Source: a bacterium
GTDB lineage: Bacteria > Bdellovibrionota_C > UBA2361 > CALJRW01
NCBI GenBank assembly: GCA_031385045.1
Contig: JANNBC010000028.1
Coordinates: 1-64,000 of the forward strand
Direction of reading: 5' to 3'
DNA: 64,000 nucleotides
Made by a program: the position numbers. This document shows positions 1 to 12,000 of the stretch, piece by piece; position 1 is the stretch's first letter, and every line of letters starts with the position of its first letter.

Positions 1-3000
1 GAGCCTTATAGGATAAGACTCAATGCCTGAGCGACCCCCAAGGGTCGCTTCAAGTGCTTCGCACTTGATATACTAAGCGTCTTTATATTTTTGCTAATTT
101 TCAATGTCACTTAGTATACTTGTGTTTGATTAGCCTAAATCTTAGATGCCACTTATTGGAAAACTTGTTCAAGGCTAGTTCCCAGATTTAATTAATGTGC
201 TAAATTTGTCCTATCTGCTAGTTCATTAATGAAACGTAATTTGTTTTTTACCAATAATCAGAAGATGGTTTGTGGCGGATTGCCGTTTTAGGCTAGATTT
301 AGTTTGATAACAATCTTTTTTGTAACACTTCTGGAGAAATATTAATCATACTATAGTGTTTGGTTTGGCTCTGTTACAGAATACGGATGTTTTTCGGGTG
401 CTAAGAGAAAGTTAAATAATTATGTTTGCAATTGATATTCTACCTTTAATTGATTCTGAACACCATTTGGCGGAAAGATTTTTTCGTGGCCAACCGGCAG
501 TCCTAATTGGTAGTGAACCTGAATGCCAACTACAGCATCCCTTATTACAAAATTTGAATTTCCAAGTATTAATTCAAAAATTAGCTGGAAGTCAATTCGA
601 ATGTCGACAGATTTTCAATGACCCTCAGAATAAATCAGGATTTCAAGATATTTATGATTCTACTGCCAAGCTTAATCTTGGAGCTGTAAAGATTTTAATC
701 ACAAGTATTGACGCAGATTTATTAGTTAAGGAAAACGAAGCTCCTGATCAAGCAGGGTATCGTCTACTAAGACAAGCAGTAACTTCCCAGTTAACAACCT
801 TTCCAGCTTTAGAAATTAATAAGCCTTGGAAAGCGGTTGTCTCTTTTAATCAAGAACAAGTTCTAACAGTGGGCCGTGCTGACTATCATCATTTGGTTAT
901 TGAGCAGTTTGATGTCTCCTCTGATCATGCCAGATTTGGTTTTGCCAATAATAAGTACTGGGTAGAAGATTTGGGTTCTACTAATGGAACTTTTTTAAAT
1001 AATCAGCAGGTATCTGGTAAGATTTTTTTTGAGCCCGGGGAGTCTGTCTTGTTAGGGGCTAGCACAAAAATTACTGGAGTTAAAAAATCAGTTAAGATTG
1101 AGCCAGTGGTAGTTCCTGAGCCAGAGTTAATAAAACCCGAATTGCCAGTGGAAGCAATGGAGCTTAAACCTGCGATCGCTGATCTGCCAACCAATGAGTC
1201 CTTAGATTATTCTCCAACCGAAGAATTATCTCCCGCAAATGTCCAAGAATTATTAGTTGATGTTCGTTATCCAATATTGCTGGCAGTTAATAAAATTGCT
1301 CGTCCCGGAAAATTAATTTTAAAGCTTGGGCAAACCGTTCTAATAGGTCGTGATTCTAATTCCGATCTTTGGTTGGGAGCTCCCTATGTTTCACGAGAGC
1401 ATAATCGGATTACCTTGCAAGCTGATGGATCAATTAAGATTCAAGATCTCAGCTCTAACGGAACTGCCTATTCGGCTGGAATGATTCCTCCAGGGGGAGA
1501 ATTGCTGATTAGTCAGGAGTCTGAGATTTTACATTATGGTTCGGGACTAGCGGTTGCAATTTGTTTTAATCAAGATGATGAAGAAAAATTTATTGCGGCA
1601 GGAGGTCGAGCAGATGCTTTTCTTGATTCCGCGGCTATTGCACCGAGAGAGCAAGTTGCATCATTATTAGCAGCTCCAAAGTCAAACCGCGAAGGACTCC
1701 TTGCTAAAGAGGAAACTTATCGCCCGCTTCGCGCTAATAGTTCTGGTTTACAGGGTGGGGGGATTGTTAGAAAGATTCTTATTAGATTTTTAGGCTTTGA
1801 TTTAAAGCGAAAGATCTTTATTTGTTGTTTAAGCTTGTTAGTAATCGCAATTTTTGTCTTATTAATATCGATAATCTTAACGTTTTTGTAAATTTTGCTA
1901 TTTTTACCAGAACCTTGGGCTTTGGATGCAAAAATTCAGCTAAAGTTTCTAGCCAAGAGGTCGATATCTTAAACAGTGAAACGGACAACTTGTTTCTCCT
2001 CATACCCTATAGTAGGCGTTAGTTAGAGGGTTAAGAATAAAATTTTTGTCACGATTTCAAGAAGGATGCCTGTGTAGTTTTAGTGCAAAACTTTTGGATG
2101 ACGTTAGTAGCTTAATTTTAAAATATTAAATATGTCAGCAGATAGTACGGAATTAACTTTTATTAGATGTTCATCTTGTCGCAGTCTTGTACCAGCAATG
2201 TCTACTCGTTGTAGGATGTGTGGTGCTGATTTACAGGCTAAGAAAGCTGCACCAGTTCCGGAGCCAGTTGCGCCAAGTGAAAAAATTGAAATCAAGAAGC
2301 CAGTAATGCTGGCAACGACTGAGCTAGATCCGCTTAATGAATTCTTAAGCGAAGATGATCAGTTTGACGATGTTGATATTGCAGATGATCAATTAGCGAC
2401 TCTTGATCAGGAAATCCCGGAAGAGCTTCATGCAGAAAGTACATCTGAATATACCGAGGATTTCGAAGATGATTTTGATGAAGAACAAGCAATTAAAGAA
2501 TTAGATAGTTTGTTGGAAGAATTAAATGCTACTTCGGCATCTTCTTATGTGGCACCAGTTGAACCAGTCATTGTGCCTGAAGTAAAACCGATAGAAGCAA
2601 AACCGATGGCAGTGCCTAAGCCTGAGATTAAGGTCGAGCCAGTCGTTGTCGCTCCTAAGGTTGTTATTCCTAAAGTTGTCACTCCGGTGAATGAACAGAA
2701 TTTAATTAACAAATCCCAACCAATAGTTCCTAGTAAGGTGGAGATTAAAGAGGAGAAAGTTATGGAGAAAGAAGTAAGAGCAGTAGAAAACAAGGTAACT
2801 TCAATTAAGTCAGCTTCCCTTAAGCAGACTGAAAAGCAGACCGCCCTTTTTGGTTGGTTTGTGAGTTACCAAGAAGCAGAAGGCGTTTCCAGAGAGATTC
2901 GCGAAGGTAAATTCTTTGTGACAGCAAAGAGTCTTAAGCCTAACGATCTGATTATTGAAGATGAGAGTGTTTCAACACCCCATGCCATGATTACTGTTAG

Positions 3001-9000: not shown

Positions 9001-12000
9001 ATCTTCGCTCGGCAAAATCCCCGATCTAATTTGAGGATATAATTCAAATAACTCGGCAGAAATTGCTCGCGCCAAGCGTTCTGTCCTTTTAGAATTACGA
9101 CTATCTTTCTCCCATGATTTACTATTACGAGCAGCTTCAGTAGAGGCTTCATGAATTCTTCTGCGGGCATAACTTTTAAAGGGCACTCCTAATTTGGGAT
9201 CAAATCTGCGAGCGCAAAAAATTAAAGCTTCAAATGCAGCCCCATCTAGACCGTCATCTTGCCAGTGTAAATTCCATCCTCGGGCTACAGATTTGGCAAT
9301 TTTTTCAGCCCAAATTTGATGCTCTAAGACTAACTCATTAGCTTCATCCATGCTTAAAATCGTTGTTTCGGTCATTTTATGTATTTTACATTAAAAATTT
9401 ACAATTCACCATCAGTTTATAGAAGCACTTCACAAACAATCTTCGATAGTCATTTTAGGTGCACTGCACTAATCGCAGAATAAATTTTAAAGCAGTTCAA
9501 ACTTATTAAATACTAACTTTGAACTAGCCGTGGATTCCAAAAAGTTATGTTTTATTACATTGCTTTTTGGAATCCACTCATAAGGGATGTTTGTTATGAG
9601 TAATTGTCGTTCAGAAGCCGAAAAAACTAAAGGTAAAATCTATGATTTTGCAAAAATAGTTGAGCGCAAGGAGTCCATAGCGACCCACCTCAGTATCCAT
9701 GAAAAAAACGGTTTAATTATGAAAAATAGGATACAGGGCCGTAAATTAGCCTGTAGTATGCTTAGAAAATGGAACTGCCGTTTAGATTTAGAAGAAGTTG
9801 ATAGTATTGTTGATTTGTCGCTATGCGAAGCAGTGAAGTATTTTGACCCAGCAAAAGGGGTAAATTTCTTAACTTTTTTATTCTATCACCTGCGGGGAAA
9901 TTTAATTCGAACAATTAAAATCCAAGCTAATCAAACTGCAATTCCTTTGGAATTTACAGATGAAAACATGGAGAGTGGATATATTGGTCATGAGCGAATT
10001 AATACTGCCGATGCCTTTGAAACTTTTGGTACTGTACAAAAGTCTCCCGATCAACAGTTTCAAGAAGGTCAGTTTTTTGAATTAACGAAGCAAGCTTGTG
10101 AAAAATTGTCTGATCTAGAACGAGAAATTATTCGGAATGTTTTTATCCACGAAGAGCAAGTTACGCAATTAGCGCAAGATTTAAATTATAGTCGTTGTCA
10201 TATTTCTAGATTAAAAACTGCCACGATTAATAAGCTTCGCTCCGAGATTGAAAAAATTACTGGAGAAAAAATTTCCATCTCTGAAGGTCTGGAATCTCCG
10301 CGTCGAGCTTTAGATACTCGTCATCGGGTTCGTAGCTTGAAAGTTAAGAAGGTTAAGAAGATAGCGGCTTAGTATTGAGTTTGCTAGACGCTTCGATTTT
10401 ATAAGATATTGCTTATTAAAAGTTATATTCATCTAATTTTTTCAATTAGCTAGGTCCTGAGCATACTTTTCGTGATATTGCCTACAATCCTCCTTCGCCA
10501 TGCTACGGAGGATATAGTGTTAGTGCTTTTTGTTCGCTTTGCGAACTTGGGTTTTTGAACACTATAGATTTGCGCCTAAGCTTAATGTCTAATATATAAT
10601 ATATACCTACAAACTGTATAGTTTTAAATTTATTATAGATAGATGTTTCTGGCCTTTGTTAAGTTAATATTATTGATTCTAGGTGCATCGGCACTGATTA
10701 CACCAGGCGTTTATTATTTAGTACCTAAGTTGCTAACTCTCGAGGAGATGTGGCCTTATTCTCGAATTTACGACCGAGTCGCTTTAGCAGTTTTAATCTT
10801 AGGTCTTTATTATTTTCGTAAGCAGTTTCAACTTAAAGAATTAAAAGGGGATTTTAAACTTTGGTCAGAAGACCAGAAATGGACTAAGTTTTTTGTTGGT
10901 TTCTTAATAGCTCTTATCCCAGTCTTGTTAGTTTTACCTTTAATGGTTTACCAGGGACATTTAAGTTGGGCGGCAAGGGATCTACCCTACTATTTAGAAC
11001 GAACAGCTAAGCTCATCCCAACAATCTTTGTAGTCTCTTTTTTAGAAGAATTAGTTTTCCGAATTTTTATTTTTTGGACGCTTTATAAATCATTTGGATT
11101 AATTAAAAGTCTGCTTTTAAGCAGCGTTTTTTATTCTTTTGTTCATTTCATTGCTCCTGTTAAGACATTTAAAGTCCATGGCTATGATTTCCTTGCAGGC
11201 TTTGAGTATTACTTAGTTGTGATCGAAAGAATCTTAAGTTTTGATTTACTTTCGGCTTTGGTTATCTTGTTAACGATCGGAGCTTTTTTAGCATTACTCT
11301 TAAAGCAAACTCGATCACTCTTTTTGTGTGCTGGTTTTCATGGCGGTTGGATTGCTGCAATTAAAATTACGAAATTTTATACAGACATCCAAGATACTGG
11401 TGTTAGTAAACTTCAAGAGCAATATTTTCTATTAACTTTTCCTGCTACTTGGTTGGCAATGGGAATTACTTTGATCTTTGCTTATTTTCTTTTCTTTCGT
11501 GGTAAAAAATGGAACTATTAATTGCTAGTAACAACTTAGGGAAGGTTGCTGAGATTAAGCGTTATTTACAGACACTCGATTTACAAGTTTATAGTTTAGG
11601 CGAGTGGCAGTTAGTTAAGAATATCTCTGGAGCACTGCCTGATCCTGAGGAGAATGGTCAGACTTATCAAGAAAATGCCTTAATCAAGGCACAAGCCTGC
11701 TTTGAATGGGCTGGAATTCCCTGTCTTGCTGATGATACTGGACTAGAAGTGGAGGCTTTGGATAACGGCCCAGGGCTATACACTGCCCGATATGCCGGAG
11801 TAAATGCTACGTATGCAGACAATATTTCTAAGATGCAACAGGAGTTACAGGGGGTTGGTAATCGTCAAGCAAAATTTAAAGCCTGTTTAGCATATTTTGA
11901 CGGGTCTCGAGTGGAAATTTTTAATGGTGAGGTTTCTGGCGAAATTTTAGCGGAGCAACAAGGTAGTGGTGGCTTTGGTTATGATCCAATTTTTAAGCCG

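Follow-up and report, generated by a model that had tools for sequence, protein, structure and literature searches.

The stretch of DNA analysed here (the window, 64,000 nucleotides from the start of one contig) comes from the genome of a bacterium of the Bdellovibrionota_C lineage (G000), and was compared with the rest of that genome and with those of relatives, including the genus mate G021. Between positions 422 and 10372 it carries one of two sets of type III export-gate genes (set A, Table 1); the other, set B, is confirmed on contigs C13 and C38, where the initial annotation had put it. The set A genes were also found where they had been reported, with Pfam matches to FHA and Yop-YscD_cpl (two proteins), YscJ_FliF, FliP, Bac_export_3, Bac_export_2, TPR and sigma families. 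Where one sigma factor had been listed, there are in fact two divergent sigma-like genes, since the genes at 8207-8554 and 8590-9375 are encoded on the minus strand.

Table 1 Set A genes of the window, and the rod and needle-like genes of set B
Feature	Position	Strand	Evidence and remarks
Double-FHA protein	422..1891	+	C-terminal membrane helix, no periplasmic part; Pfam FHA (two), Yop-YscD_cpl
Zinc-ribbon and FHA protein (Zn-FHA), soluble	2132..3169	+	Pfam FHA, DZR weak; no membrane helix
SctJ-A, inner-membrane ring lipoprotein	3320..4162	+	YscJ_FliF E 1e-8; III_secr_YscJ E 4.5e-17
Conserved 81-aa protein at SctK position	4159..4404	+	present in 15/18 set A loci
SctQ-A (C-ring)	4397..5392	+	331 aa; FliMN_C matches of orthologs, YscQ-C profile match
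SctR-A	5454..6026	+	FliP E 2.5e-36; best NCBIfam PRK12797
SctS-A	6031..6279	+	Bac_export_3 E 4e-9
SctT-A, short, very divergent	6276..6851	+	weak hhalign to SctT; structure model
SctU-A, membrane part only	6852..7526	+	Bac_export_2 positions 7-207 of 335
Conserved 80-aa protein preceding chaperone	7526..7768	+	17/18 set A loci; SctX-like by position only
Small TPR chaperone, LcrH/SycD or SctY type	7775..8203	+	NCBIfam LcrH_SycD E 6.5e-9, SctY E 1.7e-7, both under cut-off
115-aa protein behind sigma factor 1	8207..8554	-	low-complexity N-terminus; 9/18 set A loci
Sigma-70-like factor 1	8590..9375	-	sigma70-ECF E 4.7e-10; FliA_WhiG weak; 96% identical to G021
Sigma-70-like factor 2, divergent from factor 1	9587..10372	+	Sigma70_r2/r4; sigma70-ECF over cut-off
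SctI (rod), set B	C13:21917-22213		PF17001 in 15/20 orthologs; MxiI E 0.0033
Probable SctF-like (needle-like) gene, set B	C38:44923-45204		

The two FHA proteins had been described as SctD-like. Both do contain FHA domains, but neither is a full SctD: only 2-12 residues follow the membrane helix of the double-FHA protein in 19 of 19 homologs, and Zn-FHA has no membrane helix. The double-FHA protein may be the cytoplasmic half of an SctD-like role; its gene directly follows a pseudokinase gene at five loci (L085, L185, L186, L188 and L190), and the Zn-FHA gene has a paralog in the FHA gene of the Tad operon on contig C7 (tblastn to C7:20280-20657, E 2e-9). The 331-aa protein, previously listed as a very divergent SctQ/FliN-like candidate (g00491), can now be called SctQ, because FliMN_C is matched by 15 of 17 aligned orthologs, the only exceptions being the G000 and G021 copies, and the profile matches YscQ-C (E 1.7e-5). 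Its divergence was correctly noted: with 22% identity to relatives, against 34% among relatives, its sequence is unusually diverged in this genus, and degraded. SctT-A had no Pfam match in G000 or in eight of eight relatives; hhalign to SctT gave a score of 31 (probability 29%), compared with 12-18 for five membrane-protein controls, and FliR/SpaR chains took Foldseek ranks 1-4 for its AF2 model with E values (0.18-0.65) that alone are not significant. SctU-A lacks the cytoplasmic switch domain and the NPTH motif; none of the 11 set A copies has this motif, against all 5 flagellar ones, and two copies from other orders are short as well. Neither small conserved protein could be assigned: the 80-aa protein had no Pfam, PDB or Atlas family, and the 81-aa protein had no Pfam or PDB match, its identification as FliG/SctK being unsupported by hhalign (not significant to FliG or to the set B counterpart). 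We also considered that SctO-A loss might track ATPase loss and rejected this, SctO-A being missing in G010, G014, G001 and G019 too (with G021, 5 of 15 loci of the order).

The initial annotation treated set A as free-standing. However, in five relatives (G001, G062, G073, G078 and G082) the genes of a Tad operon continue directly into those of the window, and we therefore read the window genes as the downstream half of one hybrid operon, in which a Tad (Flp) pilus machine is combined with a secretin-less type III export gate, a reading that we favour on balance, with some reserve. The unsplit order, as seen in G062, G073 and G001, is PP2C phosphatase, FHA, Ser/Thr kinase, CpaE, Flp pilin, CpaB, CpaF ATPase, TadB, TadC, SctV, membrane pseudokinase, double-FHA, Zn-FHA, SctJ, K-like, (SctO), SctQ, SctR, S, T, U, X-like and TPR chaperone. 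In G000 the operon is broken between the pseudokinase and the double-FHA gene, and sctV-A, which was absent from the earlier, incomplete inventory of set A, remains on C7 (C7:7899-22342) directly behind cpaF-tadB-tadC, together with the Ser/Thr kinase, phosphatase, FHA and pseudokinase genes. At all 20 loci of the order, and at 6 of 6 sctV-A loci of other orders (among 20 fetched), tadC lies directly upstream of sctV-A; the arrangement occurs at only 31 of 208 loci holding SctV/FlhA, and each of these belongs to this class or has Bdellovibrionota in its title (the count includes both G000 and G021 twice). In every split examined, sctV-A keeps tadC and not its own sctRSTU.

The Tad parts CpaF, TadB, TadC, CpaB, CpaE and Flp pilin are all present, with Walker A/B intact in 26/26 CpaF copies, the kinase intact in 17/17 and HRD missing from 24/24 pseudokinases; no FHA was found in the CpaF of this operon. 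The Flp pilin gene occurs in 15 of 21 operons (12 of which built the profile). It has been lost from the G000 operon, the pilins of this genome being located elsewhere; there is a second Tad locus on C56. A CpaF-alignment scan of genome contigs gave at least 10 loci. The earlier conclusion that two secretin-less, non-flagellar gates are retained is borne out: the secretins of G000 number just two, a GspD-type one next to T2SS genes and a PilQ-type one with STN, with no third of CpaC/KilC type, and PF13629 stayed under cut-off in 5 of 5 genomes, a search that could miss a very divergent secretin. A quick LG+G4 tree search, with fairly long branches and without the long locus of M. xanthus, places SctV-A and SctV-B as sister clades (98, starred) outside FlhA and next to Myxococcota/Bradymonadia SctV (88, unstarred). 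Both SctV retain charged motifs, including the counterpart of FlhA D208 (for its role, see PMC3139655), and the K..GD pattern is matched by only 18 of 26 SctV-A copies.

SctRSTUV is present as two sets, weakly so for SctT-A and without the C-domain for SctU-A. These had been called minimal and devoid of rod or needle, which did not hold: SctQ and SctI exist, a needle-like gene is probable and a SctP-like (ruler-like) one likely, and several of the genes that had been named as possible refuters are among these. The needle-like family is present in 93 of 96 genomes. It has no relevant Pfam, NCBIfam or PDB sequence match of its own; its hhalign probability of 29% rose to 88%, above all shuffles, after the C-terminal alignment was widened, and its third Atlas match (0.90) is 48% T3SS_needle_F. 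The two-helix model gave no Foldseek match and only generic helices in VIA (Z<=5.5), and the best non-repeat match of the widened alignment was a 43-aa chain of the needle-chaperone entry 7y6c (E 0.94). At four short loci of Myxococcaceae (L203, L205, L206 and L209), a gene with the same needle-like C-terminus stands just before sctI, in the order F-I-J. The set B SctU is split at the NPTH site, its membrane part ending just before NPTH; the only SctU C-domain for set B is an 86-aa protein (C13:15472-15732) that matches flhB_rel (TIGR00789, E 2.9e-7) and resembles the FlhX/FlhB-like small proteins, and a hybrid histidine kinase gene lies between the two parts. At 20 of 22 loci set B comes with a sigma factor and a hybrid histidine kinase of its own, and in G000 it has lost SctQ and the K-like gene by deletion inside a contiguous locus. 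A shared upstream element precedes three set B units (9/22, 6/20 and 12/24; background 352/2000). A periplasmic SctD was not detected (PF16693 stayed below cut-off in each of 5 genomes), and no candidate genes for tip or translocon are left in the three loci, no genome-wide profile search for them having been made.

G000 has no flagellum, as reported: there is no Flagellin_N at E<=1 and no MCP, six-frame profile searches gave no FlgB/FlgC/FliJ/FliH, and the flagellin, rod/hook, FliF and FliI-FliH-FliJ genes that mark a flagellar T3SS are lacking. The genome labelled G009 here is flagellated, with 20 Flagellin_N matches, and G007/G008 hold a flgBC-fliEFHIJ operon, which departs from the initial annotation, although the genome numbering may differ. 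The lack of a type III ATPase stands for G000, where ATP-synt_ab matches only F1 alpha, beta and Rho, but it is no property of the sets, since a FliI/SctN match at E<=1e-80 turned up in 92 of the 96 genomes searched. Neither G000 nor G021 has sctL-sctN; as stand-alone, unlinked sctL-sctN pairs occur in relatives that possess both sets, the loss is a recent one, restricted to a single genus. That FliI serves these gates in relatives was rejected, given that separate pairs exist and that unflagellated G033 and G019 keep one. With the SctL/SctN module gone, both gates would have to use the proton motive force alone or borrow the help of another ATPase; ATPase-independent export is possible in Salmonella mutants, according to PMC4230889. 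The gate genes are under purifying selection despite this loss: every gene compared between G000 and G021 is intact, with pN of 0.01-0.33 against pS of 0.55-0.82. Identity to G021 is 92% for both SctV-A and CpaF and 94-96% for the two sigma factors, while SctT/SctU (50-58%) change fast and set B ranges over 51-74%.

The hybrid system is probably used against prey cells on contact. On touching a surface or prey, the Tad pilus would trigger the kinase/FHA/phosphatase switch, by which the gate would be assembled beside the pilus base; the gate would carry chaperone-bound proteins across the inner membrane, and onward transport might be by the pilus or by a borrowed PilQ/GspD secretin, as in a proposal for Kil and T3SS* in Myxococcus. 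Set B would be a duplicate gate that brings the rod, needle-like subunit and ruler of a filament, as well as a sigma factor and a sensor kinase of its own. It is more doubtful that all this forms a single machine, in which the gate is built into the Tad pilus base, cargo is loaded onto or through the pilus without a type III ATPase in this genus, CpaF perhaps helping, and the "needle-less" T3SS* lineage, including Myxococcaceae, still encodes a divergent SctF forming a short filament. Against the hybrid-operon reading itself, no substrate or effector of the gates was identified, and gene linkage can mean co-regulation only. The lack of a Tad or T3SS secretin, the broken G000 operon without its Flp gene, the second Tad locus, the rapid change of SctT and SctU, the degraded SctQ-A, the genes missing from set B, the incomplete match of the K..GD pattern and the limits of the tree also weigh against it.

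The system resembles Kil and T3SS* of Myxococcus xanthus (MXAN_2434-2464) in its Tad core with FHA proteins, its secretin-less SctJ/Q/RSTUV gate and LcrH-type chaperones, with SctV beside Myxococcota copies; the defining T3SS* set (gate, SctJ, SctQ and SctI, no secretin) was found here. The SctN/SctL complex of T3SS* is absent in G000 but present in most relatives. Kil and T3SS* are separate clusters in Myxococcus (PMC10433427, PMC8460266), whereas here sctV lies inside the Tad operon. There is here no KilC-type secretin (KilC is essential in Myxococcus; PMC8460266) and no periplasmic SctD ring, the kinase, pseudokinase and phosphatase are added, the ATPase is unlinked or lost and SctU is truncated or split. 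Kil brings T3SS* to prey contacts (PMC12075869 and PMC12428579); co-occurrence of the two is apparently restricted to Cystobacterinae according to a 2025 review (PMC12428579), and Bradymonadia are also said to possess both (PMC11509652). The Myxo "short" NF-T3SS locus (Abby and Rocha 2012; T3SS*(2)) shares the I-J-K-Q-R-S-T-U-V set without secretin, but such loci keep a fused SctU with NPTH (5/5) and have no Tad link; SctF is described as lost in Myxo systems in that paper. Injectisomes (Ysc, SPI-1, Hrp, Chlamydia) share SctJ, Q, R, S, T, U, V, I and the chaperone, and SctL/N/O in relatives, but no secretin, full SctD, tip or translocon was found here, and no ATPase in G000.

Gate A could also be a sensing or checkpoint device and not a weapon: Tad contact would open the gate and export the 115-aa protein, speculatively an FlgM-like anti-sigma factor, which would free the neighbouring sigmas for an attached or growth state, and low throughput would make the ATPase dispensable. 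At 8-9 of 18 loci of the order and in G062, set A has the 115-aa gene and the two divergent sigma genes at its flank, both sigmas are highly conserved, SctU-A is without the substrate-switch domain, many genes of the operon serve phospho-signalling and set B has a sigma and kinase of its own; but the 115-aa protein matches no family and these genes are not adjacent in half of the set A loci, and we consider this unlikely. Mere co-regulation of Tad and gates, with both gates serving a pilus-independent set B needle/rod filament, periplasmic or beyond, would suit the rod, needle-like and ruler-like genes, the near-universal needle-like family and the shared upstream element. It is made quite improbable by sctV-A, which no split examined has parted from tadC and whose conservation matches that of the Tad genes.

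The losses raise two further explanations. If the gates of this genus were decaying relics after ATPase loss, with only SctV-A kept, perhaps as a Tad accessory, one could understand the loss of SctL/N, SctQ-B and K-B, the degraded SctQ-A, the low identities of SctT/U and set B and the longer branches of the genus. Yet the compared genes contain no stop or frameshift with synonymous sites near saturation, pN is well below pS throughout and several housekeeping neighbours are equally diverged (60-72%), so that we regard decay as very unlikely. That sctL-sctN exist in G000 and are missing from the assembly is the least credible explanation and highly unlikely: the pair makes up a small, unlinked locus, the G000 assembly (61 contigs) reaches 95% completeness and G043 and G074 are likewise without a match, but the pair is also missing from G021 (97%, 70 contigs), which synonymous divergence marks as a different species, and SctQ and K-like genes of set B were deleted within a contiguous locus.

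No earlier report of a Tad–T3SS operon was found in mostly open-access main texts, and the class may appear in the Kil tables of PMC12075869 and PMC13200544. How Kil and T3SS* cooperate, and how T3SS* exports without needle or secretin, are presented as open questions in PMC12075869, PMC10433427 and PMC12428579. A class-wide operon with sctV among the Tad genes names candidate coupling parts, namely the pseudokinase, the FHA proteins and TadC, and extends the Tad–T3SS pairing well beyond Cystobacterinae. In Myxococcaceae, among which is a tractable predator, the needle-like gene ahead of sctI questions the scenario in which SctF was lost. Finally, a genus that keeps intact gates after deletion of sctL-sctN would represent type III export without ATPase in nature, a state otherwise met, in the literature covered, only in laboratory mutants.

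The gene order cpaF-tadB-tadC-sctV was seen in all 20 loci carrying the second sctV gene (sctV-A) that we fetched from the order, chosen across its families. Among 20 loci fetched from other orders, six were sctV-A loci, each with tadC ahead of sctV, and the remaining 14 were flagellar or belonged to set B, the second export gate. The tadC link was not found at the fetched sctV loci of Myxococcota, Bradymonadia, Chlamydiae, Acidobacteriota and Pseudomonadota. In G001, G062, G073, G078 and G082 the pseudokinase gene is followed by the genes of the window, and in G001, G062 and G073 the unbroken run extends to the TPR gene. 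Of 21 operons, 15 contain a Flp pilin gene, the profile having been built from 12 of them; the genome under study, G000 (2.83 Mb, 61 contigs, ~37% GC), has lost its operon copy and carries at least four Flp pilins elsewhere. A prepilin-like regex pattern matched 41 ORFs in G000, as putative prepilins, one of them in the window. The Bradymonadia-type sctV (L211, L212, L261) has the gene of a Ser/Thr kinase on one side and that of an FHA protein on the other, an echo of the kinase/FHA link.

Locations of the features discussed (C, contigs of G000, the window being C8:1-64000; L, loci fetched from relatives)
Feature	Location	Content
Tad run	C7:7899-22342	PP2C, FHA, Ser/Thr kinase, CpaE, CpaB, CpaF, TadB, TadC, SctV, membrane pseudokinase
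sctV-A	C7:10296-12377	second sctV, inside the Tad run
Second Tad locus	C56:74311-82736	CpaE, Flp-like pilin, CpaB, CpaF, TadB, TadC, then two-component pair
Extra Tad-like genes	C2:154770-158253, C13:2562-3866, C52:46088-46981	CpaE/CpaB/TadE/TadG-like
Set B, first part	C13	sctI, SctP-like gene, R, S, T, U membrane part, hybrid histidine kinase, separate SctU C-domain gene
Set B, second part	C38	sigma, J, 93-aa gene, V, TPR protein, 103-aa gene
331-aa gene	window 4397-5392	SctQ
191-aa gene	window 6276-6851	SctT
ORFs in set A region	window 8207-8554 (-), 8590-9375 (-)	the two minus-strand ORFs there
662-aa ORF	window 15178-17166 (+)	no NCBIfam match
Prepilin-like ORF	window 29245-29790 (-)	
Three genes	window 54105-58855 (-)	presumably resembling, from their translations, a PrkA-YeaH-SpoVR module
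Tandem second needle-like gene	L193:4439-4723, L195:10064-10486	before sctV-B in some other-order genomes

The window holds the other set A genes, which we compared in 18 loci of the order picked by best SctR-A score (two more fetched loci turned out to belong to set B). Gene order is kept among them: a double-FHA protein, a zinc-ribbon FHA protein, SctJ, an 81-aa gene at the K position, SctQ, SctR, SctS, SctT, SctU, an 80-aa gene and the TPR chaperone, every profiled gene being present in 15-18 of the 18 loci. The 331-aa gene, which the initial annotation had named a very divergent SctQ/FliN-like candidate, is SctQ according to sequence profiles of its orthologs; its identity to the relatives' copies is 22%, versus 34% among the relatives themselves. 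The SctT-sized membrane protein is SctT by position, profile comparison and fold ranking, each weak by itself, and the SctU noted as short is a SctU-A without its cytoplasmic domain. By profile search and topology comparison, both FHA proteins lack a periplasmic SctD part. Of the window's words, 0.66 were also present in an independent sediment metagenome (run X2).

The profiled set B genes on C13 were each found in 20-22 of 22 loci. They include a 98-aa SctI, a 265-aa SctP-like protein with a weak Flg_hook match in three of the seven relatives scanned, and a SctU C-domain encoded as a separate 86-aa gene. SctU-B stops right ahead of the expected NPTH position, and the motif is missing in 23/23 copies while present in 5/5 flagellar and 5/5 Myxococcaceae SctU copies. 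In relatives, the J and 93-aa genes of set B are separated by a K-like gene and a second SctQ gene, both of which G000 has deleted. Three set B transcription units of relatives share a two-part upstream element (upstream regions of L141-L162 and L169-L182), which the sigma factor of set B may recognise; at one mismatch the element was not found in G000.

In a quick-search SctV tree of 68 rows hand-picked from fetched loci, the SctV-A and SctV-B clades (support 99* and 100*) each span the whole class and are sisters (98* jointly); nearest to them are the Myxococcota and Bradymonadia copies (88), and FlhA lies apart. When G000 was compared with its genus mate G021, leaving out SctJ-B, sigma-B and the 265-aa and 103-aa genes, all the set A, set B and Tad genes covered were intact and pN was far under pS, with pS near saturation. 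Identity was 90-92% for SctV-A, CpaF and TadB, and 50-58% for SctT and SctU.

Most genomes of the order have five ATP-synt_ab matches versus three in G000. One extra class is FliI in the flgBC-fliEFHIJ operon (16/16 such loci); the other is sctL-sctN, standing alone as a pair. In other orders FliI is often accompanied by two of these pairs, which form two sister clades, with the order's copy within one. A FliI/SctN match at E<=1e-80 was found in 92 of 96 genomes searched and in none of G000, G021, G043 and G074, which, with the three ATP-synt_ab matches, upholds the earlier claim that G000 has no type III ATPase. G033, of the same family, lacks flagellin and retains sctL-sctN, so the family first lost its flagella and the genus of G000 then lost the ATPase pair. 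Loss of SctO-A as a companion of the ATPase loss was rejected, the two not being tied across the order's set A loci. G074, from another order (97% complete), has three SctV/FlhA matches but lacks both a needle-like gene and any strong FliI/SctN match, possibly an independent ATPase loss. We also observed two F1 alpha/beta pairs in G021 (its C26 and C64) and twenty Flagellin_N matches in the 2.5-Mb genome of G009.

The 93-aa gene of set B is present in 93 of 96 genomes and in 396 cluster representatives. Direct library and fold searches with this family (Pfam, NCBIfam, PDB, Foldseek, VIA) gave no relevant match. Aligned with PrgI-type needles, its profile scored 24 (probability 29%; column-shuffle maxima 16.3 in 60 shuffles and 15.0 in 80), and a widened C-terminal alignment, its members picked with the family's own profile and including genes of other T3SS, scored 31 (probability 88%; maximum of 80 shuffles 15.3) versus only 15 against SctI. 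An Atlas search placed third a cluster at 0.90 with 48% T3SS_needle_F; two Acidobacteriota homologs had weak HrpA_pilin matches (E 0.005 and 0.03), and the predicted structure has two helices (pLDDT 75). F-I-J is the usual gene order of injectisomes, and in four Myxococcaceae-type short loci a longer gene sharing the 93-aa C-terminus (21-24 bits) lies directly ahead of sctI-sctJ. The gene is fairly likely to be homologous to SctF. In Pyrinomonadaceae T3SS loci (L223, L233, L241, L246, L265, L266, L268) a needle-like gene adjoins a small TPR chaperone gene and sctV.

The G000 system is not a flagellar relic, and it is not an injectisome either, because the secretin, SctD ring and ATPase are all missing; secretin searches of G000, and of five genomes for the CpaC type, found none for the Tad machine or the type III gate. 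In its working it would come closest to Kil plus T3SS*. The genetic steps of the proposed mechanism are read from the genomes, whereas contact triggering, physical coupling, predation and the energy source would follow the Myxococcus findings. T3SS* is recruited by Kil at prey contacts and required for lysis (PMC12075869, PMC10433427, PMC12428579), killing is reportedly independent of T3SS*(2) (PMC10469934), a contact-signal relay is proposed for FHA proteins (PMC8460266), proton motive force can drive type III export without the ATPase (PMC4230889, PMC3139655), and a Kil-like system is reported in ~81% of Bdellovibrionota genomes (PMC13200544). A literature search, with most subscription papers and supplementary tables outside its scope, returned no account of a sctV-containing Tad operon or of these systems of the class. 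The system departs from Kil plus T3SS* in a new arrangement of genes, with sctV inside a Tad operon; its SctU is split, a needle gene is probable, and the genus of G000 lacks the ATPase.
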